Source of the DNA: an uncultured Candidatus Saccharibacteria bacterium
GTDB taxonomy: Bacteria; Patescibacteriota; Saccharimonadia; Saccharimonadales; Saccharimonadaceae
DNA: 64,000 nucleotides
NCBI GenBank assembly: GCA_947253945.1
Contig: CAMYAY010000003.1
Coordinates: forward strand, 22,664-86,663
Direction of reading: 5' to 3'
A program made the position numbers and the translations under genes. The notes under the pieces were generated by a model, which had not been told where the DNA came from, ran no database searches, and saw only the letters and a list, made by a program, of their open reading frames with translations. Shown here piece by piece: positions 839 to 42,496 of this stretch (within the stretch, counting starts at the first letter, position 1; the number at the start of each line of letters is the position of its first letter).

Positions 839-978
839 TGGCTGACTACAGAATTGGGCGATTTAGCGTGATTATTGCCACGGCATCGTGCTTGTGCTAT
901 ACTAATTGAGTAAGAAAATTGTGCGAGAATTAGCTACGAGAGCTAGCTAATAACCAGTTGACGAGAAGGAGGGTTTTA

Positions 979-3015
979 ATGAGCCGAAGTTATTTAGTGG
1001 CGCCGCGGGCGGCAATCTATACTGGAGCGGCGTTAGTAGCTGCGCTGGGATTATTTGCGATGCCGGCGCATGCGGCCGAGCCGACTAGTGCGACTAAGGC
1101 AATTAGCATTAATGTTGGCCCAGTAGTTAATTTGACGTCGCAAGGCGACTCTTATAAGGCGACGGCTAATATTACGGTGCGGGCGAGTGAATCAAATGGC
1201 TTTAGGCTGACTATGGCAGCGAGCGGGCAGGATTTGGTGAATGTAGCGAACGATAAGTATAAGATTACCGCTGTTAGTGAGGGCAAGCCGGCTAAATTAT
1301 CGGCTAACCAATGGGGCTACGCGTTCAACCAAGCTGCGACTGAGTTTAGTCAAGTTCCTACGGCGGCCCATTCGTTGCAGCTTGCGAATACTCTACCGAA
1401 CAACTTGGATGGTTGCGCTAGTATTAGCGAGTGCACAAAGTCGGTGACTTTTGCGGCGAATATTGACAATACCACTCTACCAGCTGGCCGTTACAGCACG
1501 CAGGTTGTTTATACTGTCACGCCAAAGCTGGCGCCGAAGCCACCAGTGGTGAGCAAGTCTATTTGCCGGGCGGGCGCCGCGGATAACAACTGTAAGGTTG
1601 ACATCGACCCAGACATGGTGCCGGTTAAATACATTAGTAAGATTGACAAAAAAGGCCAAGAGACTGGTAAAGCCGAGCTGCTAAGTGTAGCCGACCCAGA
1701 AGCTGCCAATAGTGGCTGGTATGATTATGCCAACAAGCAGTGGGCGAACGCTGTGACGGTGAAGAAGGAGGCTTACGCGAAGTACAAGGGTAAGAGTGAG
1801 CCAATTGACCCAGCTGATGTTTTGGGCTACTGGGTGTACATCCCGCGCTACGCTTATGAGGTAATGCGCCGTGACTATACTGATAAAATAGCTAAGGAAC
1901 AGGATTTTAATATTCACTTTGAAAAGGCGACCGACCCGAAGCGCGTGCCAGCAGCTTGCGCGAGCGAGGGCAGTGACTACCGTACGGAATGTGGCTTGAA
2001 TCGCGATTATATTGATGGTAAGCCAAGTAACCAAGGCACTTGGGCGACCCACCCAGCATTTACCTTTGGTAAGAAGGAGCTGAACGGCATTTGGTTTGCG
2101 AAGTTTAACACTACTGGCAATCTCAAGCAGCCAACCGTTTTGCCAAATGTGCCACAGATTTCTGGCACGACCGAAGGTGTCGATAGTACTAACGCTCCGA
2201 TGGAGTTTTATGCGGCGGCGAAGTCACTTGGAGTGGCTGATGCAGCTAATACAGCTGGTGGCACGCCGTTAGCCGTTCAGAATAGCCATAATTTGGCGCG
2301 CTATAGCTCGCGTATGGTTAACAATAAGGATTGGAGCGCTATGGCTTATCTCACGGCGAGCCAGTATGGCGCTGGCAATAAGGGCGGCAGAAAGACCGGC
2401 TCAACAACTTATCGTACTAAAAAATCTAAAGATAGATATAAACTATACCTTACTGGCTGCGGTAGAAGTTCGAGTGCTAAGAGGAATAATGATACAGATA
2501 AATTTGATACGAGTGCGATTTGCGGTGGTAGCGGTGCTGGTAAGGAGTATGATTATGACAATATAGGGCGGTTTACTAGTACAACCAAGACTGTTTCTGG
2601 TGTTTATGACACAGCTAGTGGCGACGCAAGAGCTTTTGTAGCGGCAGGATATAGCGACGACCTTGCACACGCCATGGGCGAGGCTAAGACTGATGTACGG
2701 TATGCCAACCTGTATAACTTTAGCGAATTCAAGCAATGTACTTGGCTAACTTGTGGTGGCCAAGCGTTACATGAGGTTAACCTATATCACGATATAAAAT
2801 CAGGTAACTCATCGAAAGAACGTACTGGCCAATGGCTGTCTAACGAAGGGAGTAAATTTGTTTCGGCCGATAAACCTTGGTTTAGCCGATATAGCCTCTT
2901 TGATGCAGACCCTGTAGCTGGTATGCCGACCAAGCCAGCTGACAATAAGAAAGACAAAGACGTCAGATATACGTATTCCTTCCGCGTCGTGCTGGGCGAC
3001 TTTCGCCAGCAGTGA
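979..3015 (+). CDS. Secreted surface-protein family member A. N-terminal ANQWGY beta module, Pro-rich linker, C-terminal FGE-sulfatase-like domain. No poly-G switch.
   Basis: ATG at 979 with AAGGAGGG SD; the ORF-track start at 958 is an upstream TTG. Signal peptide ends ...AMPAHA. Shares the motifs NITV..GF.LTM, ANQWGY, AGRYSTQVVYTVTPKLAPKPP, CKVDIDPDMVPVKY, YWVYIPRYAYEVMRRD, GTWATHPAFTFGKKELNGIWFAKF, CGGQALHE and the GVYD FGE-like motif with seven paralogs in the window. Confidence 0.7.
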   Translation: MSRSYLVAPRAAIYTGAALVAALGLFAMPAHAAEPTSATKAISINVGPVVNLTSQGDSYKATANITVRASESNGFRLTMAASGQDLVNVANDKYKITAVSEGKPAKLSANQWGYAFNQAATEFSQVPTAAHSLQLANTLPNNLDGCASISECTKSVTFAANIDNTTLPAGRYSTQVVYTVTPKLAPKPPVVSKSICRAGAADNNCKVDIDPDMVPVKYISKIDKKGQETGKAELLSVADPEAANSGWYDYANKQWANAVTVKKEAYAKYKGKSEPIDPADVLGYWVYIPRYAYEVMRRDYTDKIAKEQDFNIHFEKATDPKRVPAACASEGSDYRTECGLNRDYIDGKPSNQGTWATHPAFTFGKKELNGIWFAKFNTTGNLKQPTVLPNVPQISGTTEGVDSTNAPMEFYAAAKSLGVADAANTAGGTPLAVQNSHNLARYSSRMVNNKDWSAMAYLTASQYGAGNKGGRKTGSTTYRTKKSKDRYKLYLTGCGRSSSAKRNNDTDKFDTSAICGGSGAGKEYDYDNIGRFTSTTKTVSGVYDTASGDARAFVAAGYSDDLAHAMGEAKTDVRYANLYNFSEFKQCTWLTCGGQALHEVNLYHDIKSGNSSKERTGQWLSNEGSKFVSADKPWFSRYSLFDADPVAGMPTKPADNKKDKDVRYTYSFRVVLGDFRQQ

Positions 3016-11419: not shown

Positions 11420-11518
11420 TTTAGATTAGAACTCGCCACACCCAGCTCTTCACTAAGGCTGGGCTTTATTTATATATAATGTATAGCAATTTTGACACAT
11501 TGAGCTTACGCCAAGTAC

Positions 11519-11546
11519 TTGACGTAAGCTCGCGGGGGGGTACAAT
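11519..11546 (+). promoter_or_regulatory. Sigma70-like promoter TTGACG-N16-TACAAT upstream of the 11608 gene, whose spacer contains a G7 homopolymer
   Basis: ttgacg taagctcgcggggggg tacaat, with the G run at about 11534-11540. The spacer is 16 nt, so one more G would give the optimal 17. Confidence 0.45.
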
Positions 11547-11607
11547 AAAAGCACATGCATTTACAAGCACTTGTTTATGTAGAGGCTAGTTTAAAGAAGG
11601 AGAGTAT

Positions 11608-13269
11608 ATGAGTAAACGCAAATACTTGAACGCTATATCGGTTGGCGTGATGGCTTTTGGTACGTTGGCGCTGGGCGTGGCATTTGTCTTGCCGGACGCT
11701 TTGGTGACTAACGCTGCGAGTGACAGTGACATTCAGAAGGAGTTGGATAGAATTGTCAAGCAGGGTGATGCGGCTTATCCTAAGTATGTGCAATACAAAA
11801 AAGTAGCTGATGAAGCGAAGGCAAAGCTAGACAAGGCTGCTGCTGATGCAGTTGCGGCTGATAAGGCGGCAGCTGATAGTAATACCATGTCTACTATAGC
11901 GTGGTTTCGACAAAATTACGTCAAGGCCTTGGATGAGGCCGAGAGCTTGCGCGCGCCAGGTTCGGCTACATATAAGGCGGCTGACGAGCTTGAGAAGTTT
12001 GACCAAGAGAAGGGCTACACCAAAAATCGCATTGAAGAAGCCTTCCTTAATAGTCTCATCAAGGCTGCCGACAAGCCAAAGCCAGCGGCAGACAAGGAGG
12101 CTCAGTTGATCGCACTAGCCGATGTCATGGACGGTATCGACGCCAAAGTCTTAACCGACAAGCAGGCAGGTGCTCTCAAGAATCACAGTGAGTACTTCCG
12201 CGGCAAGAAGGTGGTAGACGGCAGGCCGAGCAAGGTTCTTGAAGATATCAATGACGCTATTAAGCACGCTGCTGGTGCCGAGCGCAGAGCAGAAGGTGAG
12301 GGTATGTCTAGCGATTCTAAAACCTCAGGCTGGGGCTACAGCCAGCCAGTCCTCAGTGTGTGTGGTGCGACGCGTTACGATGAGAAGGCTTGGGCCTACG
12401 CAACTTACAAAGGCTTTGGAAAAGAGGGAACTGCGCATGTCGCTAGGGTCAATCAGGACTTCGCGATGTTTATGCAAAATGTGGAAGACCGCTTCCATGC
12501 CGTGCTTGATGGTAAGTTAGACAAGGCTGCCCTCACTACTCAGCGTGACCAAGCTAGGCAAGCCTACGAGAAGGTAGCTGCAGAGTTTGCCCAGAAGGAA
12601 AAGGCGGCGCAAGATGCTTGTACCGCTGCTAAGGCAACGTTTGAAGCACCAACAAGGGTAACTGAGCAGTTTAGGAAGGCTAAGACAGAGGCTCCGAAGT
12701 TAGCTGCTAAGGCTAAGGCGGCGCATGCTGCAGTATTGCCGCTAGCAGTTGCGGAATGGGATGCTGCTACTAACTTGCGCCCGTATGCTGAGGAAGTTAG
12801 CTCGCTCAAGGAACAGCTAGCAAAACTAGCTGAGGGTAAGGGGCTTAACTTTGTTGCTAAGCAGATTCGTAGTAGCAAGAATTCAACCTTTGCTGCACTA
12901 GCAAATCTAGTACGCGAGGGTCTAAGGGCTGCTACTCCAACTCCGGCTCCAACCCCAGCTGATGATAGCGATGACCATCTATTGGATTACCCGCAGCTTC
13001 CAGATAATAACGACTATGACCTAAGTGATTACATGGGGCTAGGTAAGTACGAGGGCACTAATAAGGAGAATGGTTCAGAGAAGAACACTCCGAACAAGCC
13101 GGCCGAGAAGGGCGATAAGACCATTGAGGTTACCCCAGAGAGCAATAAGCAGCCTAACGCTGACCAGGACGCTACTAAGAATGCTCCTAAGGACACTCCT
13201 CAGGGGCAACAGCAGGTCAAGAAGGGTCACCATAAGTACGGTGCACCTAACACCGGTTACAAATTCTAG
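11608..13269 (+). CDS. Secreted Ala/Lys-rich surface protein
   Basis: GAAGGAG SD. Signal peptide MSKRKYLNAISVGVMAFGTLALGVAFVLP. Long Ala/Lys-rich helical repeats and a Pro/Thr-rich C-terminus. A terminator follows at about 13296-13330. Confidence 0.55.
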   Translation: MSKRKYLNAISVGVMAFGTLALGVAFVLPDALVTNAASDSDIQKELDRIVKQGDAAYPKYVQYKKVADEAKAKLDKAAADAVAADKAAADSNTMSTIAWFRQNYVKALDEAESLRAPGSATYKAADELEKFDQEKGYTKNRIEEAFLNSLIKAADKPKPAADKEAQLIALADVMDGIDAKVLTDKQAGALKNHSEYFRGKKVVDGRPSKVLEDINDAIKHAAGAERRAEGEGMSSDSKTSGWGYSQPVLSVCGATRYDEKAWAYATYKGFGKEGTAHVARVNQDFAMFMQNVEDRFHAVLDGKLDKAALTTQRDQARQAYEKVAAEFAQKEKAAQDACTAAKATFEAPTRVTEQFRKAKTEAPKLAAKAKAAHAAVLPLAVAEWDAATNLRPYAEEVSSLKEQLAKLAEGKGLNFVAKQIRSSKNSTFAALANLVREGLRAATPTPAPTPADDSDDHLLDYPQLPDNNDYDLSDYMGLGKYEGTNKENGSEKNTPNKPAEKGDKTIEVTPESNKQPNADQDATKNAPKDTPQGQQQVKKGHHKYGAPNTGYKF

Positions 13270-13406
13270 TCTAGCCTATAGCTAACTTTGCGAACACTGT
13301 CCGCCACTCTGTAATGGGGTGGCGGTTTTGACTATTGCACTAATGTTTATGTGGCGATATAATGAAAGCATTAGTGGAGACACTAAGAGAAAATAAAAGG
13401 AGTAAT

Positions 13407-14021
13407 ATGAAATTAGTAAAATCTTTTCCGCTTCTAGCCATGGGCGTGTTGGCTTTTGGCTTGGTTGGTGTGGCTGCGTTGGCGCCGGTTGCTAATGCAG
13501 CTAAGCCGAACCCTGGTGCTAGACCTTCTAATCAGGTTGAGGGTAATAAAAGCGGTCAGCAAACAGTCGAGACGGTAATACCGATGAATTTGGGCATTAA
13601 TTTAAGCGCTGGCAGCGAGTTAATCCAGGGCAAACCGGGCGAAATCAGCAAATTTGCTGAGGGTAATGTGACGAGCAACGCGATTGATGGTTACACTGTG
13701 ACGCTTAAAGACCAAGATGAAGACAACTCTCTGAAGCTTAACGGCACCGACGCGCAGCATACCATACCGGCCGTCGATAATGTGACTGCTGCTGGCGTCA
13801 CCAAGGGCTGGAATATCTTGCTTGGCGACCAGCCGCGTAAGGTACCTACCTCTAAAGAGACGCCGCTAACAGTTGATAGCACCAAGAAACCGGGTGACGG
13901 TAAGTTTTACATCCGTTACAACTTTAAGGCTGATAATTCAGTGCAAAATGGTACCTATAGCGACACAGTGGTATTTACCGTAACGTCAAACTTCGCTACT
14001 GCTATCGCGGAATACAAATAG
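13407..14021 (+). CDS. Secreted single-domain protein, a distant stand-alone relative of the family N-terminal module
   Basis: AAAGGAG SD. Signal MKLVKSFPLLAMGVLAFGLVGVAALAPVANA. Single beta-rich domain ending NGTYSDTVVFTVTSNF (compare AGRYSTQVVYTVT in the family) and containing GWNIL (compare QWGY). Confidence 0.5.
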   Translation: MKLVKSFPLLAMGVLAFGLVGVAALAPVANAAKPNPGARPSNQVEGNKSGQQTVETVIPMNLGINLSAGSELIQGKPGEISKFAEGNVTSNAIDGYTVTLKDQDEDNSLKLNGTDAQHTIPAVDNVTAAGVTKGWNILLGDQPRKVPTSKETPLTVDSTKKPGDGKFYIRYNFKADNSVQNGTYSDTVVFTVTSNFATAIAEYK

Positions 14022-14319
14022 AGCTTGACCGCATCGTAGCTTCTGGTGTGCTCGAGCCTCTAGCGCCTCGCGTATCATCTTGAAATATTCTAATAAGGCA
14101 GATTCTATAGACATTATCCTTAAGATTTGACGCTTAAGCCCGATGCCAGCAGGGAATCTGCTTTATTTTTGGTAGTTAGACCTTATTATTTACTATTTCA
14201 TAAAATTGTTCCACAAAACTCTTGTATTTATAACCGTAAGTGCTACAATGTTGGTATATACAAAAGAGTATAAAAACGGAGGACAAAACAATATGAACAT
14301 ACTAAGACTAAACAGCTGC

Positions 14320-14328
14320 GGGGGGGGG
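14320..14328 (+). repeat. Poly-G tract (G9 as read) in the 5' leader of family member B. Candidate slipped-strand phase-variation switch, currently OFF.
   Basis: ATG at 14293 has a GGAGGA SD, but the reading MNILRLNSCGGG hits TAG straight after the tract. With G8 it reads through into the 14420 ORF frame. Confidence 0.6.
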
Positions 14329-14419
14329 TAGATTTTTAAGCCCTCTACTCCAAATTACTAAAAGTAGGGGTAAAATAGCCGGTGCCGCTAAGTGGAACTT
14401 ATATTATTGTCTAGCATTT

Positions 14420-15730
14420 TTGTCCATAGCAGGTTTGGCAGGGGTATTTTTGCCATTGCCAGCAATGGCTGATGATTCAATCGATATTTCCGTTGACCCA
14501 GATGTTAGTTTGATTAAGCACGGTAATCTATATAAGACTACCGTTGGTATAACTGTTGGTGCAGAAGAGCCATATGGATTTAATATCTCCATGCAGGCTG
14601 CCGACTCTAGTTTGTCTAATAGCATAGACAAGAGCCATAAAATAACGTCTACACAAAGCGATACACCGGTTGAACTAGGGGCCAATCAGTGGGGGTACGC
14701 ATTAGATAACAATGCGGGTAAATTTAGCAAAATTCCTAGTAGCTCAGAGAGTGTGGCTAATATAGTGGATGTTACTAAAGATAATTTGTCCGGGTGTAAA
14801 AGTGTAAAATTCTGCACCAAGCGGGTTACTTATGCTGCCAATATTGATGCAGCTAAGTTGTCAGCTGGTAATTATAGTACCAGTATTACTTATACGGCCA
14901 CAGCAAAGGCGGCCCCTGCGCCAGTTCCAACTCCGCCAGCACCTGAGCCGTATGTGCCGCCGGCACCAAAAAGTAATGGCTGTCGTCAGGGCAGTTCTAA
15001 CTGTTCTATTCATATACCTAGGCAAGGTTACGATGCTAGCTCTAGCTACGTCTATGATAATTACTATGGCTGTTCATCTTTAGGTGGAGACTATGGTGTT
15101 GAAAGAGCATGCAAAGACCATCGTAGATCTTATGATAACAATATGTTGTCTTTGGATTCGCTTTTGCCGGTAAAACGAGAAGGTGGTGAATGGGTGTCGG
15201 TTCCGTCTTCTAATGATGATGACTATAATTATGACGGTACCAGTGGCAATAAATGGACATATATTGCTGTTATAGATAATGATGATAAACGTAGGCTGTA
15301 TTTCCAGAAAAAAACAGTGGTTGATTTAAAATATGTTACCGCAATTTATACATATGTACCACGCTATAAGATGGAAGATGGCAAAGTGGTGTTTTGTAAA
15401 CAAGCGGATTTCGCTAGTTGTGAGGGCCGACACGATTTTTATGGGGTGTTTAGTGATGCAACTGTAACGAATTATACGGATGGGTTTTGGGTTGATCTTA
15501 AGAGTGTGATGGGATGTAGCTATATGATGCCGAGCACTACGATGTATTCCTTTAACCATAACACTGTATATGATGATCATCTTCTGAATAGCTATGTTTT
15601 TGTAGAAAGGGATTATGGGTCATTTAAAGAGTATGGCGCTAATTACTATAGTGATTATAGGAATACTGATAGCCCTATTGAAACTACAGCAAAAGATCTT
15701 GCCAAAGCTATTGGTTCGCCATGCTATTAG
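14420..15730 (+). CDS. Secreted surface-protein family member B (N-terminal ANQWGY module, Cys/Tyr/Asp-rich C-terminus). Phase-OFF; the ON form would start at 14293.
   Basis: The ORF-track start is a TTG without an SD. The upstream frame with G8 gives MNILRLNSCGGGRFLSPLLQITKSRGKIAGAAKWNLYYCLAFLSIAGLAGVFLPLPAMA, an extended signal peptide. The N-domain motifs YGFNISMQA, ANQWGYAL and AGNYSTSITYTATAKAAPAP are present. Confidence 0.6.
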   Translation: MSIAGLAGVFLPLPAMADDSIDISVDPDVSLIKHGNLYKTTVGITVGAEEPYGFNISMQAADSSLSNSIDKSHKITSTQSDTPVELGANQWGYALDNNAGKFSKIPSSSESVANIVDVTKDNLSGCKSVKFCTKRVTYAANIDAAKLSAGNYSTSITYTATAKAAPAPVPTPPAPEPYVPPAPKSNGCRQGSSNCSIHIPRQGYDASSSYVYDNYYGCSSLGGDYGVERACKDHRRSYDNNMLSLDSLLPVKREGGEWVSVPSSNDDDYNYDGTSGNKWTYIAVIDNDDKRRLYFQKKTVVDLKYVTAIYTYVPRYKMEDGKVVFCKQADFASCEGRHDFYGVFSDATVTNYTDGFWVDLKSVMGCSYMMPSTTMYSFNHNTVYDDHLLNSYVFVERDYGSFKEYGANYYSDYRNTDSPIETTAKDLAKAIGSPCY

Positions 15731-15910
15731 AATTAGCTGGTGTAAGATAGCGGATTATAATCATACGGCATAATATCCGTAGCGGAACCCAAAAATCCTA
15801 AATGTATTGAACTAATGCAACCAGCTTGACGGATGGCGGGGGAATATGGTACTATGGTCTAGGTAAGTTAATAATAAATCAGCTATCCACGGAACTCCTG
15901 ATTACTCGGG

Positions 15911-16669
15911 GTGGGTAGCGCAGGAAAGGAGTTTGAGGTGTCAAACGTTGACATTAAACAGCTATTTGAAGCTGGTGCCCACTTCGGTCACAAGACCGCT
16001 CGGTGGAACCCGCGCATGGCGCAATATATTTACGGCAAAAAGGACGGTGTACATATCATCGACCTCGAGAAGACTGTAGCGCAGATTGAGGCTGCTCAAA
16101 AGTTTGTTGAGAGCGTAGCTGAGCGTGGTCGCCAAGTGCTATTTGTCGGCACGAAGCAGCAGGCAAAAGAGGTAACTGCCGAGGCTGCAACTGCTGCCGG
16201 TATGCCTTATGTTACCGAGCGCTGGCTTGGTGGTATGCTAACCAACCAGACCACCGTGGTTGCACAGATTAAGAAGCTAAAGCTATTAGAGAAGCGCATG
16301 GCTAGCGGTGAGCTTGCCAGCCGCTACAACAAGCTCGAAGTGCAGCACTTCCAAGAGGAAATTAACGTCCTCAACACCCGTTATGGCGGCATCAAGGACA
16401 TGCACGGCAAGCCAGGCGTACTCGTGGTACTAGACGCTGTGTCAGACCGCAACGCTATCAACGAAGCTATTAAGCTAAACATCCCAGTGGTAGCCGTTTG
16501 CGACACCAACGCCGACCCGAAGGGCATCGACTATGTCATTCCAGCAAACGACGACGCAATCTCAACCTTGAAGCTTGTGGCGGGCTATCTCGCTGAATCA
16601 GCTAAGGCTGGTAAAGAGAAGTCAGCTAAGGTTGCCGAAGAGCGCAAAGCTGCCAAGGGCGACAAATAA
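15911..16669 (+). CDS. rpsB: Ribosomal protein S2
   Basis: QLFEAGAHFGHKTARWNPRM... is the S2 signature. The likely true start is GTG at about 15937, after GGAAAGGAG. Confidence 0.9.
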   Translation: MGSAGKEFEVSNVDIKQLFEAGAHFGHKTARWNPRMAQYIYGKKDGVHIIDLEKTVAQIEAAQKFVESVAERGRQVLFVGTKQQAKEVTAEAATAAGMPYVTERWLGGMLTNQTTVVAQIKKLKLLEKRMASGELASRYNKLEVQHFQEEINVLNTRYGGIKDMHGKPGVLVVLDAVSDRNAINEAIKLNIPVVAVCDTNADPKGIDYVIPANDDAISTLKLVAGYLAESAKAGKEKSAKVAEERKAAKGDK

Positions 16670-16698
16670 TTAACTAATTTAACTAAGAAGGGGAGAAA

Positions 16699-17310
16699 AT
16701 GGGCGTTACATTAGACGAAATCCGCCGCCTACGCGAATTGTCTGGCGTTGGCTTAACTGATGCAAAGAAGGCACTTGTGGCCGCCAACGGCGACTTCGAC
16801 AAGGCTTTAAAGGACATGCGCGAAAAGGGCCTCACCAAGGCTGAAAAGCGTTCCGAGCGCGAGGCGCGCGAGGGCCTTATTGAGTCCTACGTACACGGTG
16901 GCCGCATCGGCGTTATCGTGGAGCTGAACTGCGAGACCGACTTCGTGGCTCGCACCGACAACTTTAAGGAATTGGCGCACGAGATTGCCATGCAGGTTGC
17001 TGCTATGCGGCCAAAGTGGGTGTCTGAAGATGACATCCCAGCAGAGGTGAAGGCGGCCAAGCGTGAAGAACTCGTGGCTGCCGTTAAGAGCGACCCGAAG
17101 AACGCGAACAAGCCAGCCGACATTCTAGACAAGATTATCGACGGCCAGCTCGCCAAGTACTTCGGCGAACTAGTTTTGCTCGACCAGGCCTACTGGAAGG
17201 ATGACACCAAGACTATTGCCACTCTCGTCAAAGAGAATATTGCAAAGCTCGGTGAAAACATTGTGATTCGCCGCTTTGCTCGCTTTGAGCTCGGCGTCAC
17301 CGAAGACTAG
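16699..17310 (+). CDS. tsf: Elongation factor Ts
   Basis: MGVTLDEIRRLRELSGVGLTDAKKALVAANGDFDKALKDMREKG is the UBA-like N-terminus of EF-Ts. Sits in the rpsB-tsf operon with a terminator at 17361-17385. Confidence 0.9.
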   Translation: MGVTLDEIRRLRELSGVGLTDAKKALVAANGDFDKALKDMREKGLTKAEKRSEREAREGLIESYVHGGRIGVIVELNCETDFVARTDNFKELAHEIAMQVAAMRPKWVSEDDIPAEVKAAKREELVAAVKSDPKNANKPADILDKIIDGQLAKYFGELVLLDQAYWKDDTKTIATLVKENIAKLGENIVIRRFARFELGVTED

Positions 17311-17493
17311 TCTTTAGAGTCAAAGATAAGGCGCAAGCTAATTAAGCTAATTAAAACACCCCAGAATTACTGGGGTGTTTTTGTGTGGCGGGCGGGCTTG
17401 GCTGCCACGGAACAATTTGCTCGCGCGCGTATGACTCGCAGCCAAATAGGCCAATTTAAAGGCCCCCACTGAAGTGGGGGCTGGCGATAGGGG

Positions 17494-18303
17494 CTAAGCA
17501 TAATGGATGTATCTTGGCTTACTATCAGCTCTAATTAATGTTTTGTAGAAGCCGAAAGTGCACAGTGTTATTAGAGAACACACGCATTCTGCCATGTATA
17601 GATACATAATAGTCTCTGCGTAGTAGATACTGTCATCAGAAAACATCAAATAGAGTATTATGTTTTGACACAACACCACTATGATTGGCCATGCCATATA
17701 CGACATGCCATTGCCCGCGTCACGTATGCGGCGTGTGCAGAGCGCAAGCCAACATACACTGAAGTAGAGCGTTAAAGCGCATAGTATCACTGGCGACCCA
17801 ATAAATAGTCTAAACACGATGGCGTAAGCTACATCAATCAAGATACTGCCAACCCACCAAGTGAGTCGGGTAGAGCAATCGTAAAAATTCAAGAACTGCG
17901 CAAATGCTTCGCCAAGCATATTTTTTAGATTATACTGTGGTTTTTCGGTTAATATAGCACCGGCGGAAGTTTTTGGCTCAGTTGGGGTACTAGTATTCGG
18001 TTGTTCTGGCATCTCTGCCGTTGGCGCCATTGGTGGCGTTTGCGGTTGATCTGCATTGGTAGGTAGCTGCTGCTGTTGAGGCCCCGGCTGTGTCGAGTTG
18101 GCGCTTGGCGGTGCCGGTGGCTGACTTGGCATAGTAGTGCCGGTGTTAGCCGTTTGATGTGGCGGTACCGGTGGCGTAAGACGCGACATTGTCGGATTGG
18201 TCGGCGGTGCCGGCGGCTGGTTCGGTTGAACCGGTGGTTTCGGCGGCATATTTTGCTGTGTTGGCGGCGCCGGTGGCATACCTTGAAAATTGTCATTAGA
18301 CAT
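17494..18303 (-). CDS. Pro-rich N-terminus with a C-terminal DUF805-like membrane domain
   Basis: PPAPP-rich low-complexity region of about 110 aa, then TM helices with RRIRDAGNG (DUF805 has RRLHDxGxSG). Confidence 0.45.
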   Translation of the reverse strand: MSNDNFQGMPPAPPTQQNMPPKPPVQPNQPPAPPTNPTMSRLTPPVPPHQTANTGTTMPSQPPAPPSANSTQPGPQQQQLPTNADQPQTPPMAPTAEMPEQPNTSTPTEPKTSAGAILTEKPQYNLKNMLGEAFAQFLNFYDCSTRLTWWVGSILIDVAYAIVFRLFIGSPVILCALTLYFSVCWLALCTRRIRDAGNGMSYMAWPIIVVLCQNIILYLMFSDDSIYYAETIMYLYMAECVCSLITLCTFGFYKTLIRADSKPRYIHYA

Positions 18304-18430
18304 AATGTTAACTCCTAGCTAGAAGGAACATATCGGCATTTGCTGATAATGCTTTAATTGTACAATATTGCAGTGCTATTGTCAATAAGAAAGCCCCACC
18401 GAAGTGGGGCAATGCTAGTCGTTGGTCAGA

Positions 18431-19003
18431 TTAACAATCCCAATTAAATACCATGTAACGTGGTTCGTTATCTGACCGGCTTGGCTTAAATGCCGCAATG
18501 GCAAGTGGTGCAACGAGAGCGCAAGTGTTCGCAATGGCGATAACTTGGCTCAGTAGTGGGCACGGCGTGATTAATAGTACATCCATAAAATAGACTACGA
18601 TAATCGCGTGCAATGCGGTGACGCTACTAGTGGCGCCGGCGTCGCGGAGGCGGCGGGTGGTGAGCGCAATGAGGCAAATCAACAGATAAATGGTTACCGT
18701 AAAGGCAGCCATCACGATGATGCTGAGCGCCATCGACGCAATTGTGTCGATGAGCCCGAGGCGGGCAAAGCACATGTGTCTGGCTGAAATTAAGGTGGCG
18801 AGCGGAATGGTGCCCGTCACGGCAATGGCGATGAGGCCAAACCAGAATTCAAAGCGGCTTGCGCCGAGGCTAGCGTCGTGGCGAATGCAGAAGGCTTGGC
18901 TAACTAAGTTGCCAAAGGTGTGCACTGGGCGACGGCTTAAACGGATAAATCCGGCTATAGTGCGTTCGACCGGCTGGTCAGCGTGGTTAAATTGGTTGTT
19001 CAT
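18431..19003 (-). CDS. DUF805-like membrane protein
   Basis: TM helices around TTRRLRDAGATSS. Paralogous to the C-termini of the 17494 and 20128 genes. Confidence 0.45.
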   Translation of the reverse strand: MNNQFNHADQPVERTIAGFIRLSRRPVHTFGNLVSQAFCIRHDASLGASRFEFWFGLIAIAVTGTIPLATLISARHMCFARLGLIDTIASMALSIIVMAAFTVTIYLLICLIALTTRRLRDAGATSSVTALHAIIVVYFMDVLLITPCPLLSQVIAIANTCALVAPLAIAAFKPSRSDNEPRYMVFNWDC

Positions 19004-21315: not shown

Positions 21316-21498
21316 GTTTGTCCTTTGATTAATTACTCATATCTTACCGCGCTATCATAAATCGCGCAAGACTGAAGGCGGCGACAGAGGTGGCAGGGTG
21401 GTGCGCGAAAAATTTGGCATTTTATTTTGTTAGTGCTATAATTCAGGTATCTACCTTGGAGGCAGAAAAAGAAAAAATAAAGGAGGAGAATAAACAAT

Positions 21499-22467
21499 AT
21501 GAATAAATTACGGCAAACAGCTGTGGGGGGGGGTAAATTTTTAAGACTTTTGCCTCACGTTACTAAGTGTAGGGATGAAGTGGCTACATCAGCGCCTGCG
21601 ACGTTAAGCTTCAATCATCTCGTTTTTGCGGCGCCCACTACATTATTTAGCTTGTTAGCGTTGGCTATCGTGCCGTTGGTTTTTACTGCGCCAGCCCATG
21701 CAGACTATATTAATGTTGTCCTTGATGCACCCAATGCTACATTGAATGGTGTAGGGAAGTATTTTAGCTATAGGAATGTTATTACAGTAAACAATAGTAA
21801 TAGTTATGGTTTTACGCTTGGTATGTATGCCAATAATCCCAATCTAGTCAATAACAGAGATTCAAATTATACAATTAGTAGTGTTTCGGGGCGTGGAAGA
21901 TATCTTGGCTCTAATCAATGGGGGTACAGCATGACGGGTGATGACGGTACATTTAATGAGATACCAAGGTCATTGTATAATGCTGTAACATTGGCAGATG
22001 TAACGAACAAAGCAAAGGGCGTATGTAGTAGTGTTGCGTACTGCCATATTCCAGTTACTTTCGGCGCTAATATTGAATCTAATAAAAGCGCCTCGGGCTA
22101 TTACTCTACGACGTTAATTTATACTGTTACCAGTAAACCAAAACCGTATACCCCACCAACGCCACCGGCGCCAGATCCAGAGCCATATCATCCGTCTACA
22201 CCACCAATTGGTGGCGGGACGGGCTATCATGATTGGTGGAGTGCATGTCGCACTAGATATCCTGGCTATGATTTAGTAACTGAGGACAAGATTAGTTATT
22301 GCGCGCATCATGAAGGCGACATGGACGGCTATGCCCCGGATTGGAATTCGATATGTACTAAGAGATATCCTGGTACTTATAGCCGGCAACTTAATGCAAG
22401 GTCATATTGTATAGCTCACGAAGGCAACATGAATGACTATCCGGATGATCCTAATAATAATATATGA
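21499..22467 (+). CDS. Secreted surface-protein family member C (N-module plus two Cys-rich C..RYPG..YC.HEGDM.GY repeats). Poly-G leader in frame (ON).
   Basis: AAGGAGGAG SD. MNKLRQTAVGGGKFLRLLPHVTKCRDEV...FSLLALAIVPLVFTAPAHA is an extended signal peptide. The G9 tract at 21525-21533 encodes VGGG. Confidence 0.65.
   Translation: MNKLRQTAVGGGKFLRLLPHVTKCRDEVATSAPATLSFNHLVFAAPTTLFSLLALAIVPLVFTAPAHADYINVVLDAPNATLNGVGKYFSYRNVITVNNSNSYGFTLGMYANNPNLVNNRDSNYTISSVSGRGRYLGSNQWGYSMTGDDGTFNEIPRSLYNAVTLADVTNKAKGVCSSVAYCHIPVTFGANIESNKSASGYYSTTLIYTVTSKPKPYTPPTPPAPDPEPYHPSTPPIGGGTGYHDWWSACRTRYPGYDLVTEDKISYCAHHEGDMDGYAPDWNSICTKRYPGTYSRQLNARSYCIAHEGNMNDYPDDPNNNI
21525..21533 (+). repeat. Poly-G tract (G9) inside the leader codons of member C, ON configuration
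   Basis: GCT GTG GGG GGG GGT AAA is in frame. Confidence 0.6.
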
Positions 22468-22732
22468 CACGTATAGTTGCTATTTTTTGTAATGATAAAA
22501 TATTGCCAAGAAGCTTGATTAACTGTGTATCATGAATGATGACACGAGATAATTATTGTCCATTGGTCATTGCTAGTTGGCTTTATATTATTGTATGTAG
22601 AAATTCATTGTTCCGCTAATTATTAAATTAATAAAAAGTTTGGCATTTTATTTTGCTAGTGTTATAATTCAGATATCTACCTTGGAGGCAGAAGAAAGAA
22701 AAAATAATGAAAAACAAAGAGAAATAAACAGC

Positions 22733-23695
22733 ATGAGAAAGCATTTGACATTGGCGCGCAGTGATAGTCAATCAACTGGCGCAAATAGCAACTCCATTTG
22801 TATGGTATCGATTGCTTTGTCTTTGTTGTTTGTTGCGTCGTTGGCTTTTGCCACACCGGCTTATGCGGACAGTATTTCAATAAGCCTCGACTCTACCGCC
22901 GTTGCTCTACAGCGCAGTGGGGATTTGTATAAGCACACTAGTAGTATCCATGTACACAACAATAATACTTACGGCTTTACGCTTAGCATGAGTGCCAGTC
23001 AGCCAAATTTGGTAAACAGCAAGGACTCTACTTATAAGATAAACTCCGTTTTTGGCACCAACCAGCACCTTGCCGCTAACCAGTGGGGTTATGGCATGGG
23101 TAAGACGCCCGCTACATTTAGTTCAGTTTCTTCTGCGTCGCTGGCGGATATTACCAGCAACAATAAAGGCAGCTGCAGCGCTGTTGATGACTGTACACTC
23201 TATCTCACCTTTGGTGCTAACATTGATTCGAAGCGCCTGCCAGTAGGTAATTACAGTACTACATTGACTTATACCGCAGTTAGTAAGCCAGCTCCGTATG
23301 TACCATCAACGCCAACACCAACGCCGAGCCCACCTTCGGGTGGTGGATCGTCGGGTCATAGTTCTTTGTATTATTTATGCGAAAGGAGATATCCCGGTAA
23401 TAGTGATATAGATAGGTGGGAATATTGTTTCGATCATCATGGCGACATGAGTGGATTTGATGACTACTATTTAAATAAGACATGTAGTGAAAGATACTCC
23501 GGCGATGATGATAAGATATCATACTGTAAGGATCATGATGGCGACGTGAGTGGCTATGTACCTGATTGGAATAAGATATGTAGTAGAAGATACCCTGACT
23601 ACTATCTTGATTCTCTTAGTAAGAGGGCATATTGTTACCATCACCATGGCGATATGAGTGGCTATGTTGACTATTATCATCCCGGCGGCAACTAA
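22733..23695 (+). CDS. Secreted surface-protein family member D (N-module plus four Cys-rich C..RYP..YC.HHGDMSGY repeats). No poly-G.
   Basis: Start set at MRKHLTLARSD; the ORF track extends to 22640. Signal ends ATPAYA. ANQWGYGM and VGNYSTTLTYTAVSKPAPYVPSTPTP are present. The C-terminal repeats are CERRYPGN..YCFDHHGDMSGF, CSERYSGDDDKISYCKDHDGDVSGY, CSRRYPDYY...YCYHHHGDMSGY. Confidence 0.6.
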   Translation: MRKHLTLARSDSQSTGANSNSICMVSIALSLLFVASLAFATPAYADSISISLDSTAVALQRSGDLYKHTSSIHVHNNNTYGFTLSMSASQPNLVNSKDSTYKINSVFGTNQHLAANQWGYGMGKTPATFSSVSSASLADITSNNKGSCSAVDDCTLYLTFGANIDSKRLPVGNYSTTLTYTAVSKPAPYVPSTPTPTPSPPSGGGSSGHSSLYYLCERRYPGNSDIDRWEYCFDHHGDMSGFDDYYLNKTCSERYSGDDDKISYCKDHDGDVSGYVPDWNKICSRRYPDYYLDSLSKRAYCYHHHGDMSGYVDYYHPGGN

Positions 23696-26584: not shown

Positions 26585-26689
26585 AATTTGGCGAAATCAT
26601 TGCGCTTGTGCTATAATGCAGGTATCTAGGAGAATGGTGTAAAAATGGAGGACAAAAACAATATGAATATACTAAGACTAAACAGCTGC

Positions 26690-26699
26690 GGGGGGGGGG
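26690..26699 (+). repeat. Poly-G tract (G10 as read) in the 5' leader of family member E. Candidate phase-variation switch, currently OFF.
   Basis: ATG at 26663 has a GGAGGA SD and reads MNILRLNSCGGGVDF then TAA. With G8 or G11 it reads MNILRLNSCGGGRFLRYFPHIVKREGKIATPAP... straight into the 26854 ORF. Confidence 0.6.
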
Positions 26700-26853
26700 T
26701 AGATTTTTAAGATATTTTCCCCACATTGTCAAGCGTGAGGGTAAAATAGCCACTCCGGCGCCTCTGGCGCCAACAGCCAGCCATAATTTTGCGCCGGCAG
26801 CCGATAGCCAAGCCAATTATAAGAATTTATTAGCGGGCGGTCTCGCCCGCGGG

Positions 26854-28824
26854 GTGGCACTCGGTCTGTTTGTTTTAGCTTTTGCGCCATTAATCTTAGT
26901 TACGCCAGCCCACGCCACCGATGATAACACTGTCAGCATCGCGGTTGACCAGAACGCTACACTAAAGCCAGCTGGCACGCTCTATAAAGCCACCACGAAC
27001 GTTACCGTTAAGACCGGCAAACCCTACGGCTTCAATCTCACCATGCAAGCCGATACGGCTGACCTTGTAAACAGTAAGGACCCAACCCATAAAATCTCCG
27101 CCACTCCAAGCACCACCCCGGTTGCCTTAAACGCTAACCAGTGGGGTTATGCTCTTAATAAGTCTGCCTCTACTTTCAGCGCCGTCCCAGCTGGCACCCA
27201 AGCCACGCCAGCCGTCATTGTTGATACATCAGTTAAAGGCAAGCAAGCTGGTTGTAATTGTAAAGACCATTGCGATACCACTGTTACTTTTGCAGCCAAC
27301 GTCGACCCAGCTAAATTAGCCAGCGGTAGCTATAGCACCACCATTATCTACACGGCTACTGCCAAACCAGCTCCAAAACCACCGGTAGTTGAGCCAACGG
27401 TTTGTAAGTCCGGCGACCCAAAGAACGATTGCCAAGTTGACCTCGACCCAAACATGATCCCAGTCAAATATACTGGCAGTATCTATAACGCAGAGTGGAC
27501 CAGTGTAGCCGATCCAGAAGATAGTTCCAACCAAGGAAATTGGTATGACTACGATAACAAGCAATGGGCTAATGCTATCACTGTAAAGCCATGGGCTCTC
27601 AGTAAATATCAGGGTCAGACCAGGGTAGTAGACCAATCAGATATTCTTGGCTTTTGGGTCTACATACCACGTTATGCTTATGAAGTCATGCGCCGTGATG
27701 CTACAGACAAGCCGGTGCCAGCGCAGAATTTCCTAATTCATTTTGAAAAGAAGACCGACCCGAAGCGCTATCCAGCCGAATCAAAATGTGCTGGCCGTAA
27801 TATGGATTACCGTACCACCTGTAGACTCAATCGCGATTATATCAAGGGCCAGCCAAGCACCCAGGGCACCTGGGCCACCCACCCAGCCTTTACCTTCGGC
27901 GCTAAAGAACTCAATGGCATCTGGTTTGCTAAGTTTGAGACGACGGGTAGTATTGACCATCCAACTATTTTGCCTAATCAATCCCATATAGGGTATGAGC
28001 CTATCGGAACATATTACACGGTAGCTAAATCTCTTGGGGTTAACGACCCACAAAATATTGGTGGCAACAGTATATCCACTACCCAAAATAGCCACAATCT
28101 TGCTAAGTTTAGCTCTCACATGGTAAATAATAGCGACTGGGGTGCAGCTACTTACTTATCTGCTAGTAAGTATGGTTCTGGCTATAATAAGGTTCAAATG
28201 AATACTAATGGACAGGGGCATAGTACTGGCTACAATGATATGTCGTCATATGGTATTACTGGATGTGGTCCGCGTTCTAGTGGCGATGCTAGTAGCTATG
28301 GAGGTAATAGCAGCTATCAGTATAGGCCAAACTATACCGACGAAGTTGGTGGTGTGCTAGGCACCCAAAGTGCTTGCTATTCTGGTGATATACAGCGTGC
28401 TTACAATGGCACCCTTGGCCAACTCGCTAGTACCGCCAACAACCCAACAGGTATTTATGATATGTCTGGTGGGGCTTCGGAATATACTGCATCTAGTTAT
28501 ACTAGTGATCTAAATAATTCTAGTACTATTAATTTCAGACAATCGCCTGCTCGTCCACCGTATGCTAACATATATAATTTCGATACCCTAAATAGATGTA
28601 CTTTTTCTACCTGTGGTGGTCAAGCTCTACACGAAACAAATAGTGATAGCACCGTAGCTCGATGGAATGGTGGCTGGGTAAAATTTGTGGGGCATTCTGC
28701 TCCGTGGTTTGAACGTGGTGGCTACTATGGTGACTCGCATATAGGACTGTTTCGTGTTAGTATTTCGAATGGTGGTCCCATTGGTATGGTCGCGTTCCGC
28801 GTCGCGCTCGCGCCTACGGTGTAA
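26854..28824 (+). CDS. Secreted surface-protein family member E (N-module plus FGE-sulfatase-like C-domain). Phase-OFF; the ON form would start at 26663.
   Basis: The ORF-track start is a GTG without an SD. About 85-90% identical to member G (40276) over the N-module. Motifs ANQWGYALN, CQVDLDPNMIPVKY, YWVYIPRYAYEVMRRD, GTWATHPAFTFGAKELNGIWFAKFETTG, GIYDMSGGASEY, CGGQALHE and FRVALAP are present. Confidence 0.65.
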   Translation: MALGLFVLAFAPLILVTPAHATDDNTVSIAVDQNATLKPAGTLYKATTNVTVKTGKPYGFNLTMQADTADLVNSKDPTHKISATPSTTPVALNANQWGYALNKSASTFSAVPAGTQATPAVIVDTSVKGKQAGCNCKDHCDTTVTFAANVDPAKLASGSYSTTIIYTATAKPAPKPPVVEPTVCKSGDPKNDCQVDLDPNMIPVKYTGSIYNAEWTSVADPEDSSNQGNWYDYDNKQWANAITVKPWALSKYQGQTRVVDQSDILGFWVYIPRYAYEVMRRDATDKPVPAQNFLIHFEKKTDPKRYPAESKCAGRNMDYRTTCRLNRDYIKGQPSTQGTWATHPAFTFGAKELNGIWFAKFETTGSIDHPTILPNQSHIGYEPIGTYYTVAKSLGVNDPQNIGGNSISTTQNSHNLAKFSSHMVNNSDWGAATYLSASKYGSGYNKVQMNTNGQGHSTGYNDMSSYGITGCGPRSSGDASSYGGNSSYQYRPNYTDEVGGVLGTQSACYSGDIQRAYNGTLGQLASTANNPTGIYDMSGGASEYTASSYTSDLNNSSTINFRQSPARPPYANIYNFDTLNRCTFSTCGGQALHETNSDSTVARWNGGWVKFVGHSAPWFERGGYYGDSHIGLFRVSISNGGPIGMVAFRVALAPTV

Positions 28825-28953: not shown

Positions 28954-31080
28954 ATGGTAGAGGTAAGGTCTAAATTGCGGCGGATTTATTTGGTGAGTGG
29001 CATGGCATTGATTGTGCTCGCCACCCTTCTGGTGTTGCATCCGGCGCCGGTGCAGGCGCGGCTGGCCAGCCAGAGCGCGACGCCGACTAATGACGGCATA
29101 GAAGTTACGTCTGTTGACGAACTGAAGCTGCAGCGGGGTGAGCACCGCTTTTACAAGGCTACCAATCACATTTTTGTCAAGACAGGCTGGAAGTACGGCT
29201 TCAGTGTGACCATGTTGGCGTTGACGCCGGATTTATTGCACAATCCGAACCCTATTTCTGACTGTGGTAGCGTTGTGATCGCAGCCCCTAAGAGCTATGA
29301 GCCGGTGGATTTGCAGCCGGGGCAGTGGGGCTTTAGCCTCGACCAAAATGCTACCAAGTTCAGGCATATTCCGAGTATGTGGCAGGCTCGGCCGCACGAC
29401 GACCCGCTACTGATAGCCGAAACGTCTCCAAACAAGACCGGCAAGTGTGCCAGCGCCCATGAGTGTGATGTGCCGGTGACCTTTGCGGCTAATTTAGACT
29501 CCAATGACATCGCTGCTGGCAAATACGAGACTAATGTTTATTACACGGTGACCGCTAAGCCGCGCCCGCCGCATGTGATTGAGGAGCCGAACATGAGCAC
29601 TAATTTTTGCCAGTCCGGCAACGCAGCGAACAGCTGTAAGGTTGATATCGACGCCAACATGATTCCAGTGCGCTACGACACCGAATATGCCAAGTGGGTG
29701 AGTGTAGCCAAGACCGAAGACGCCGCGCATCAGGGTAGTTGGTATGATTATAATAAGAAGCAGTGGGCGAACGCCGTGACGGTGAAGAAATCGGCATTAA
29801 GTAAGTACCAAGGCCAAGCTAAACCTGTCGACCCAGCTGATATTCTCGGTTACTGGGTGTATGTGCCGCGCTATGCTTATGAGGTGATGCGGCGTGACTT
29901 TAGCAACCACCTTCCAGTGAAGCCGCAGAATTTTGCCATTCACTTTGAAAAAGCGACTGACCCAAAGCGCACTCCGGCGCCATGCGAGCGTAGTTCGTAC
30001 TTCATGCCGGATTACCGGAAGGATTGTAAACTCGACCGCAGCTACATTGCTGGCAAGCCGAGCAAGAACGGCACTTGGGCGACTCATCCAGCGTTTAGTT
30101 TTGGCAAGAAGGAGCTGAACGGCATTTGGTTTGCGAAGTTTGAGACCACTGGTACGAAGACTCAGCCAACGGTGCTGCCGAACCAGCGTCGTATGACTGG
30201 CGCTGACCTTGGTGGCGACGCTGCGGGCTTGTTCTATACGCTGGCTAAGACTGTGGGCACTGTTGACCTTGGTAACGTTGGCGGTACGCGCATCAAGGAC
30301 GCGCCAAGTAACGCGCACGACCTCGCCAAGTTTAGCTCACGCATGATAAACAATAAGGACTGGGGCGCCTTAGCTTACCTCAGCGCCAGCGAGTTCGGCA
30401 CGGGCTACAACGGCTTACAGTCAAACAACCAGACCGACGACCAAATGGACGCCGACCAGAATTTCAGCAAGGGTGTAACGGGCTGTGGCGCCGGCACCGG
30501 CGAAGACTACTCCGACACTGGCAAGTTGGGCACGGAGCAGGCTTGTAACGCAAACCACCCAGAGTACGCCTATAATGGCACCGTCGGACAGCACGCCAGC
30601 ACCACTGGTAACGTGACAGGCGTGTACGACATGGCGGGCTATGGTGGCTACGTGGCGGCGAAGTATGTTGTTGATCCAAATACGCTAGTGCCGAGCTCCA
30701 TACCAGAGTTTGCACGACCGAAGTATACGTGGTATCACAAGAGCGACCCGACTGGCATTGGCGCGCCGCTCAACTCGCCGTACCTCAATGCTTATAACTT
30801 CTCGTCGTTTGACAAGTGTACTTATGAGCTTTGTGGTGGGCAGGCTAGCTATGAAGTTCACAACATCTACGTCCCGTCCGGTCCAAATCAGTGGCTGGGT
30901 CAAAAGTATGACGATTACAAGATGGAGGTTGAGGATACTTGGGTTTACCGTGGCGGCAGTAGCGACCTTGAAGGCGACATTGCGACAGGTGACCGCGGTA
31001 TTTACACCTTCCATCTTGCGAACGGTGGTTCAACTGGCCAAGACGGCTTACATATTGTCCTCGGCGCATTTAAGCAGTAA
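28954..31080 (+). CDS. Secreted surface-protein family member F (divergent N-module plus FGE-like C-domain). No poly-G.
   Basis: GGAGGTGG SD. Signal ...LHPAPVQA. Motifs QWGFSL, CKVDIDANMIPVRY, YWVYVPRYAYEVMRRD, GTWATHPAFSFGKKELNGIWFAKFETTG, GVYDMAGYGGY and CGGQASYE are present. Confidence 0.7.
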   Translation: MVEVRSKLRRIYLVSGMALIVLATLLVLHPAPVQARLASQSATPTNDGIEVTSVDELKLQRGEHRFYKATNHIFVKTGWKYGFSVTMLALTPDLLHNPNPISDCGSVVIAAPKSYEPVDLQPGQWGFSLDQNATKFRHIPSMWQARPHDDPLLIAETSPNKTGKCASAHECDVPVTFAANLDSNDIAAGKYETNVYYTVTAKPRPPHVIEEPNMSTNFCQSGNAANSCKVDIDANMIPVRYDTEYAKWVSVAKTEDAAHQGSWYDYNKKQWANAVTVKKSALSKYQGQAKPVDPADILGYWVYVPRYAYEVMRRDFSNHLPVKPQNFAIHFEKATDPKRTPAPCERSSYFMPDYRKDCKLDRSYIAGKPSKNGTWATHPAFSFGKKELNGIWFAKFETTGTKTQPTVLPNQRRMTGADLGGDAAGLFYTLAKTVGTVDLGNVGGTRIKDAPSNAHDLAKFSSRMINNKDWGALAYLSASEFGTGYNGLQSNNQTDDQMDADQNFSKGVTGCGAGTGEDYSDTGKLGTEQACNANHPEYAYNGTVGQHASTTGNVTGVYDMAGYGGYVAAKYVVDPNTLVPSSIPEFARPKYTWYHKSDPTGIGAPLNSPYLNAYNFSSFDKCTYELCGGQASYEVHNIYVPSGPNQWLGQKYDDYKMEVEDTWVYRGGSSDLEGDIATGDRGIYTFHLANGGSTGQDGLHIVLGAFKQ

Positions 31081-40066: not shown

Positions 40067-40275
40067 GGAAGGTGAGGCTATAACTAAATCCCCGCGTTGG
40101 CGGGGATTTTTGGTGACAGAAAGTAGCTTTGATGGCTTAGCTTTTGCTCTAGCAGCGGGGCAGCTTGTTTAAAGTTTGGCGTTTTATCCCGCTTGTGGTA
40201 TAATGCAGGTATCTAGCCGGTGGTGGCAGAGATAAACCTAAACAGGACAATAACCAAAAATGGAGGACAAACAAC

Positions 40276-42381: not shown

Positions 42382-42496
42382 GTTGTCGGGATATTGGTAT
42401 CTGATGGGCGGGTGGGAGCTCGCCCATTTATGTTGATGTAAGTAGCCCGCCGCTAACCTAACTAAAAACCCACCCGGTAAGGGTGGGGGATAATGT

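Follow-up and report, generated by a model that had tools for sequence, protein, structure and literature searches.

A poly-G tract in the signal-peptide leader of a vaginal Saccharibacteria gene: a probable ON/OFF translational switch and its family-wide cassette

We analysed a 64,000-nt stretch of DNA (contig CAMYAY010000003.1; hereafter the window, whose positions are used throughout) from a genome of the Candidate Phyla Radiation (CPR), Candidatus Saccharibacteria, belonging to the vaginal TM7-H1/BVAB-TM7 clade. Its gene B, which lies on the + strand together with its own signals, paralogues C, E, G and H and the gene A promoter described below, carries a run of nine Gs near its 5' end. 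This tract is very probably a slipped-strand ON/OFF translational phase switch of a secreted or surface protein, with the true start at ATG 14293. Slipped-strand mispairing during replication would add Gs to the tract or remove them. At 8 or 11 Gs the leader would be joined to the body of the gene, giving a complete signal peptide (ON); at 9 Gs, the length in this assembly, translation would meet a TAG stop after 12 codons, and at 10 Gs a stop after 15, leaving the body without a usable start or signal peptide (OFF). The product would be secreted, and probably surface-exposed or pilus-associated. The same cassette, comprising a Shine-Dalgarno (SD) sequence, an ATG, 23-34 further nt, the G run and a stop-rich block, appears to head about half of a family of pilin-domain genes, such that each genome would hold roughly ten independent stochastic switches, most of them OFF in any one consensus.

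The gene B leader and its tract length in identical alleles

A preliminary description of this stretch had placed an SD, a short leader, a G9 run and a TAG stop ahead of a main open reading frame (ORF) in another frame, and direct reading finds each of these where that description put it. The SD, GGAGGA (14278-14283), is conserved across the class-1 leaders defined below and is separated by a 9-nt spacer from the leader ATG (14293-14295). This ATG is followed by the codons AAC ATA CTA AGA CTA AAC AGC TGC GGG GGG GGG TAG, which in the G9 (OFF) state read as MNILRLNSCGGG and a stop (14293-14331) and which in the ON state would encode the n-region of the signal peptide. The tract itself is exactly G9 (14320-14328), begins 27 nt after the SD-bearing ATG, inside the n-region, and numbers 7, 8, 9, 10 or 11 Gs in orthologues. 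Immediately 3' of it lies a conserved TAGATTTTTAAG (14329-14340) that holds stops in both OFF frames (TAG at 14329-14331; TAA at 14337-14339, read as ..GGGVDF and a stop) and reads G-R-F-L-S in the ON frame.

The main frame of gene B is last closed upstream by a TAA at 14309-14311 and is open from 14312. Its first ATG, GTG or TTG is the TTG at 14420, in a frame different from that of the leader and with no purine-rich SD before it, as had been claimed. The intervening stretch (14312-14419), which has neither stop nor start, encodes a long N-region and the beginning of the h-region, and the arrangement of frames indicates that it is translatable solely from the leader ATG once the tract changes length. 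The body (14420-15730, 436 amino acids) comprises the remainder of the signal peptide, a pilin-like immunoglobulin (Ig) domain, a Pro-rich linker and a Cys-rich C-domain. When one G is removed in silico, leader and main ORF fuse as the preliminary description had foreseen, yielding a continuous 478-amino-acid precursor that runs through MNILRLNSCGGGRFLSPLLQITKSRGKIAGAAKWNLYYCLAFLSIAGLAGVFLPLPAMA into DD and has an N-region, a hydrophobic core LAFLSIAGLAGVFLPL and an AxA site; cleavage is predicted after AMA (14468-14470), between PAMA and DD. The frame calculation gives full-length translation at G8 and G11, and the early stops noted above at G9 and G10. Three family members that have no tract (979-3015, 22733-23695 and 28954-31080) carry an ordinary SD-ATG signal peptide directly before the same mature domain, and they are presumably always expressed; the placement of their signal peptides argues that the true start of gene B is 14293.

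Gene B appears to form its own transcription unit, given a terminator-like hairpin and T run that end the upstream unit (14148-14172; stem 14148-14162, then TTTATTTTTGG). A candidate promoter, TTGTAT-N16-TGcTACAAT with an extended -10 element (14222-14249), falls under the -35 threshold of the scanning tool; the block that contains it, gtgctacaatgttggtatatacaaaagagtataaaaa, is kept in the B orthologues at loci L001, L064 and L065.

Long G runs are concentrated in this one sequence context. The window holds four runs of at least 9 Gs, compared with a mean of 0.36 in dinucleotide shuffles (0 of 100 shuffles reached four), and no C run of 6 or more. All four lie 26-27 nt downstream of an SD-bearing ATG in one conserved leader, in frame in paralogues C (21499) and G (40276) and out of frame in B (G9) and E (G10).

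The same allele is found with different tract lengths. We compared 2,227 nt of flank in the B orthologues, 327 nt before the tract and 1,900 nt after it. One allele, with 0 mismatches over this entire flank, occurs with G9 (SRR19067248, SRR28705565 and ERZ27230856), with G10 (SRR13167695, ERZ27230853 and ERZ28570452) and with G11 (ERZ28570470, ERZ27230854, ERZ14212924 and ERZ28570512), and is therefore observed in both OFF and ON lengths. Consecutive BioSamples carry it as G10 (SAMN25037418) and as G11 (SAMN25037419 and SAMN25037421). A near-identical allele (L072) has G8, and a third B leader allele has G7 at L064 and L069 and G9 at L065. The tract is hypermutable relative to its flanks: because at least two events fall within about 10 nt and none within 2,227 nt, we estimate that its per-base excess of change exceeds two orders of magnitude. 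These lengths support the slipped-strand architecture that the preliminary description had recognised; slippage would be the mechanism, and the changes may be reversible within a lineage.

Two further comparisons show length change at the tract. Over 4.95 kb, loci L005 and L006 differ by 3 single-nucleotide polymorphisms, one A deletion and an additional G at each of two G tracts. A single protein cluster at 90% identity contains forms with GGG (P0065 and P0066), forms with GGGG (P0001, P0070 and P0059/60) and OFF calls of 533 amino acids that start at an internal MADDS and share the mature sequence of the ON forms. As for the window's own B allele, its G8 and G11 translations were not found in the protein collection, and the exact allele was seen only as G9, in scaffold ERZ28569506; the L060 allele, which differs from it by one base across the leader and 130-nt flanks, is also G9.

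A cassette shared across the pilin-domain family

A profile search of genomes with the N-terminal domain of the family returned 49 loci in six genomes, all Candidatus Saccharibacteria and including the complete TM7-H1 genome CP026537. Among the loci fetched, we counted 46 non-redundant leader tracts of G7 to G12, from at least six Saccharibacteria genomes: two of 7 Gs, four of 8, 18 each of 9 and 10, three of 11 and one of 12. Fourteen are ON and 32 OFF (20 in the -1 and 12 in the +1 frame); this proportion of about one third ON is as expected for unbiased frames. The preliminary description, which dealt with gene B, understated the scope of the system: it is family-wide, with about ten switches per 0.7-Mb genome, and is accompanied by a G tract in the promoter spacer of a neighbouring gene. 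That description had also cited in-frame paralogues C and G, and both exist: C has the leader MNKLRQTAV and G9 at 21525-21533 (21499-22467), and G has the leader MSKLRQTAV and G9 at 40302-40310 (40276-42381), each in the ON state. Paralogue E (26663-28824) has the leader MNILRLNSC and G10 at 26690-26699; it is OFF (ending ..GGGVDF and a stop) and would be ON at G8 or G11. A related homologue without the upstream ATG and leader had been named as evidence that would count against the switch; instead, all orthologues and most paralogues keep the SD-ATG-leader-tract cassette.

The leaders fall into three types, of 26, 27 and 37 nt. In class 1a (B and E; ..AACAGCTGC-Gn-TAGATTTTTAAG) the tract begins 27 nt after the first base of the ATG and the ON lengths are 8 or 11; in class 1b (C and G; ..AAACAGCTGY-Gn-TAAAYTTTTAAG) it begins 26 nt after that base and the ON lengths are 9 or 12; and in class 2 (ATGAGACA..AAAACCCTGT-Gn-TAATTTTTTGGCC) the ON length is 9. 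The more distant genome represented by L053 has a further leader of its own, with G9. Ahead of the tract, classes 1a and 1b have a DNA motif in common but read it in different frames, their 1-nt difference being offset by tract length; the leader residues are therefore not constrained as protein, as expected of a signal-peptide n-region. The ON product of the short-leader paralogues has a textbook signal peptide, MNIIRLNSCGGGGRFLSLIALAIILL..PVHA.

The bodies behind the OFF tracts have kept their frames. None of the 32 OFF loci has a stop in the body frame between the tract and the first start codon, which makes 1,159 stop-free codons in total (composition-based P ~6e-25, which is indicative only, as the loci are related and are not independent trials), and the OFF bodies themselves, of 215-861 codons, contain no further stop or frameshift. 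Every copy uses GGG for all three Gly codons of the tract, and translation in either OFF frame would end no more than 4 codons past it. Both features of the cassette are kept between genomes whose proteins share just 35-45% identity.

One leader, at L046 (CAMIMA010000001.1, 2880-2990), is chimeric, with class-2 ..AAAACCCTGT upstream of the tract and class-1 TAAACTTTTAAGCC.. downstream; it has G9 and is out of frame. The join suggests that cassettes recombine with one another at the tract or close to it.

Gene B lies upstream of rpsB-tsf, and this synteny is kept by its positional orthologues in other vaginal metagenomes. Window positions 11465-18730 (7,266 nt) are 100% identical to the European Nucleotide Archive (ENA) vaginal-metagenome scaffold ERZ28569506, which is probably the source of the window sequence. 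A scan of Joint Genome Institute (JGI) metagenome contigs, by cassette DNA pattern and protein profile, found no relatives outside the vaginal clade. TM7-H1 (BVAB-TM7), a Saccharibacterium of the vagina that has not been cultured, is linked to bacterial vaginosis and preterm birth; the paper describing its genome makes no mention of homopolymers or phase variation (PMC6750801).

If these tracts are switches, they single out the gene family most likely to serve attachment in TM7-H1, and a 0.7-Mb genome would devote about ten loci to stochastic variation of its surface. The switches would also account for the annotation of these genes in metagenome-assembled genomes (MAGs) as truncated, lacking a signal peptide or lying at contig ends, and automated annotation of the TM7-H1 clade would be systematically wrong at tract genes. 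Counting tract lengths in reads could then serve as a simple assay of surface-state dynamics in existing longitudinal vaginal metagenomes.

Alternatives to phase switching

The rival that survives best, though we consider it improbable, is recoding: the G run and its conserved flanks (..CAGCTGY-Gn-TAGATTTTTAAG) would drive RNA-polymerase slippage, or +1/-1 ribosomal frameshifting at GGG-GGG-TAG, so that every allele yields some full-length protein and the DNA tract length merely tunes its level. That about two thirds of the copies are out of frame in consensus genomes while all bodies are intact would fit such a scheme, as would the G9 run directly adjoining a stop codon, a position that favours P-site slippage (RF2-type frameshifting). 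The 26- and 27-nt class-1 leaders point the same way in reading one DNA motif in two frames, which implies conservation at a level other than protein, but concerted evolution within a multigene family would account equally well for the conserved nucleotides of the leader. Length change at the DNA level is directly observed and is enough to account for the pattern, and transcriptional slippage is best documented at A/T runs, not G runs. We considered and rejected a structured mRNA at the tract: in all four leaders the Gs pair with a run of pyrimidines further downstream, with energies no better than those of shuffled sequences (z +0.22, -1.36, +0.10 and -0.26). A search of the window against Rfam at gathering thresholds matched only a tRNA at 42500-42573, with no RNA element at the leader or tract.

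Less likely still is an error of homopolymer sequencing or assembly, in which the real tract would be G8 or G11 and gene B simply in frame. Homopolymers are error-prone, one of the reference genomes (CP026537) is PacBio-only, and MAG contigs begin or end exactly at the poly-G tract in four cases (L013:1, L015:1-9, L020:1 and L025:5264-5272). Such breaks are also consistent with mixed tract lengths, or with a repeated leader breaking the assembly graph. Against an error, most contigs were built by short-read assemblers (NODE_, k141_ and Logan names), with k-mers longer than the tract; each length is seen repeatedly where one allele was assembled separately (G11 four times, G9 and G10 three times each); and about two thirds of the 46 tracts would have to be wrong, yet the 2.2 kb of identical flank shows no other frameshift. 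Whatever its exact length, the tract is in any case present at this position.

The least credible alternative is decay, in which out-of-frame copies are pseudogenes of a family eroding in a reduced genome and the G run is a functionless mutational hotspot: most copies are indeed OFF and paralogue H is split at an internal G7, but the OFF bodies have zero further lesions, the same allele is found both ON and OFF, and the cassette is conserved between genomes as divergent as noted above, including that of L053 with its own leader.

Several considerations nonetheless weigh against a phase switch. The ON and OFF calls assume that the SD-bearing ATG is the start. A G run beside a stop codon could permit ribosomal or transcriptional slippage and make the OFF state leaky, whereas we suppose that an OFF gene makes no protein. 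Tract-length variation is known between assemblies rather than inside a single population, and several of these assemblies may re-assemble the same or related samples, as consecutive ERZ and BioSample numbers hint, so that the independent observations would be fewer than the contigs. CP026537 is a PacBio HGAP assembly, which makes its tract lengths less trustworthy (PMC6750801). Finally, lengths centre on 9-10 whatever length is ON, with no sign of selection for ON; the distribution looks like a mutational equilibrium, not maintenance of a reading frame.

Known systems, encoded proteins and neighbouring genes

By analogy, the gene B switch seems closest to the poly-C tract of Gardnerella nanH3, which occupies the same niche. 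That tract is 8-14 nt long, lies at the signal-peptide region and has a commonest length that varies by strain (bioRxiv 10.1101/2020.09.16.300947). Like gene B, nanH3 comes from the human vagina and is associated with bacterial vaginosis, and its out-of-frame alleles are annotated without a signal peptide. It differs in being a single sialidase gene, with a tract just after the signal peptide and within-colony variation shown by cloning, whereas the gene B tract lies inside the n-region, belongs to a multigene family and is known from comparative evidence only.

The classical precedents are pilC of Neisseria gonorrhoeae and N. meningitidis and the other contingency loci of Neisseria, Haemophilus, Campylobacter and Helicobacter, which share with gene B a G homopolymer in the 5' coding region, a frame shifted by one unit and a role, putative for gene B, in pili or adhesion. 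The poly-G tract of pilC was reportedly located in the signal-peptide part of the gene by Jonsson and colleagues in 1991. N. meningitidis has 115 candidate phase-variable genes, many loci per genome as here (PMC5084427). The present case differs in phylum, the organism being an ultrasmall member of the CPR with epibionts as its cultivated relatives, and in its unrelated proteins; in addition, about ten genes here share one SD-leader-tract cassette, with at least three leader types, known from sequence comparison. In Mycoplasma, the vlp, vsa and vsp genes likewise combine a reduced genome with a surface-protein family of conserved 5' regions and divergent bodies, switched individually by homopolymers. 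The vlp tract is a poly-A run in the promoter, and the proteins are lipoproteins; the Saccharibacteria tracts, by contrast, would act on translation, except at the neighbouring gene A.

Gene A (ORF 11608-13269) encodes an Ala/Lys/Glu-rich secreted protein and is preceded by a promoter-like TTGACG-N16-TACAAT (11519-11546) with a G7 run (11534-11540) in its spacer. Orthologues have G9 (L005 and L007) or G10 (L006) at this site, for a spacer of 18 or 19 nt compared with 16. In opc of N. meningitidis, the spacing of the -35 and -10 hexamers is set by the length of a homopolymer between them (PMC3960869). The poly-C promoter tracts of opc and of Bordetella fim3 resemble the arrangement at gene A, TTGACG-(9+n)-TACAAT with n = 7, 9 or 10, although G7 is short for a variable tract and the gene A promoter is predicted from sequence. 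The gene A tract thus looks like a transcriptional phase switch of the opc/fim3 type, acting on a putative promoter.

The mechanism proposed here is classical; for the CPR it is new as far as the literature searched shows. The preliminary description knew of no earlier account in a CPR-like genome, and the genome is indeed CPR: our search turned up no case of phase variation by homopolymers in Saccharibacteria or elsewhere in the CPR, where slipped-strand mispairing is mentioned only for in-frame 9-mer repeats in a Gracilibacterium (PMC6851277). The case is noteworthy for its lineage, for how densely the switches are packed into a 0.7-Mb genome and for its clinical context. Contingency loci, a strategy of host-adapted pathogens, would then extend to the ultrasmall bacteria of the CPR, of which the cultivated members live as epibionts.

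The proteins of the family have few recognisable relatives in sequence. No Pfam family matched gene A, B, C, F, G or H at E <= 0.01, and relaxing the threshold to E <= 5, with the domains of B and G taken singly, brought up no useful match. The NCBIfam model NF058581 (CPR_Pam_pilin_C) matched gene B at E 0.008 and 16.3 bits, far below its cut-off of 55; it gave no match at E <= 0.01 for C, F, G, the downstream ORF of H or gene A, and none at E <= 0.001 for the E body (scanned in NCBIfam only) or the upstream ORF of H. Structure is more informative. AlphaFold models of the N-domain have a predicted local distance difference test score (pLDDT) of about 90 in B and 80-93 in G. In Foldseek the B N-domain matches chaperone-usher pilins (CfaB 4y2l at E 2.6e-5, CS17, CooA, FimG and the PapG pilin domain), and the modelled N-domain of G likewise has a chaperone-usher pilin-type Ig-like fold.

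The C-domain of paralogue G (40966-42378; model pLDDT 60-80) matches TaqVP, 5vf4, at E 6.6e-6 and a TM-score of 0.39-0.43, with no Pfam support. In these models, the C-domain of members of the E/F/G/H type resembles the lectin-fold variable protein TaqVP of a diversity-generating retroelement (DGR). A DGR, suggested by this fold match, was considered and rejected, as the window has no repeats of template-repeat/variable-repeat (TR/VR) type: a direct-repeat scan found paralogue similarity only, in a search that did not look exhaustively for a reverse transcriptase. The Cys-rich C-domain of B gave no confident model. Among B orthologues (P0001 and P0003-P0005, compared with window 14420-15730 and P0002), the N-domain and Pro-rich linker are near-identical and are followed by one of two unrelated C-domains, the window's Cys-rich ..GSPCY type or the E/G lectin-like type, a pattern that reads as domain shuffling at the linker.

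The nearest described pilins are PamA and PamB, which have a C-terminal truncated Ig-like donor-strand-accepting fold resembling that of chaperone-usher pilins, and which are restricted to CPR, mostly Saccharimonadia (bioRxiv 10.64898/2026.03.03.709456). Gene B shares the chaperone-usher-type fold of its N-domain and the weak match to the Pam pilin C-terminal model; unlike these pilins, it has the pilin-like domain at its N-terminus, followed by a variable domain. An NCBIfam and Pfam scan of neighbouring ORFs, which did not extend to direct comparison with PamC or PamD sequences, found no chaperone families of PamC/PamD type. Gene B is at most a candidate member of the Pam family. Judging from the models, the family probably consists of secreted pilin-domain proteins with exchangeable binding domains that act as adhesins.

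A bolder proposal, which we put forward tentatively, is that the tract is the core of a portable cassette recombining among about ten pilin-domain adhesin genes, to give a combinatorial, stochastic repertoire of Pam-type pilus tips or adhesins. We raise it because of the L046 chimera at the tract, the identical N-domains with different C-domains and the promoter-type G tract nearby. If true, this repertoire could govern binding to bacterial hosts or human surfaces and evasion of antibodies and phages, and the system would constitute the first contingency loci in the CPR.

Other features of the window concern further members of the family. Paralogue H (50917-53189) consists of two overlapping ORFs (50917-51369 and 51309-53189), split at an internal G7 (51265-51271) just before a conserved QWGY motif; G8 would fuse the two. 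This run may mark a third site of switching or simply be a frameshift, and exact-protein look-ups found no H orthologues on record. An ORF at 958-3015, considered as a translation factor, is instead one of the tract-free family members. Upstream of three family members, a shared block of about 77 nt with TGcTATAAT, an extended -10 element (21408-21484, 22634-22710 and 40170-40246), is a putative promoter module that these members have in common, distinct from the leader cassette.

GC skew is positive in 15 of the 16 4-kb bins of the window and slightly negative only at 40001-44000 (G 28.7%, C 23.3%). The long homopolymers of the window are all Gs on the + strand, which places every tract as G in the coding strand, and the tract-bearing genes presumably run in the direction of replication.

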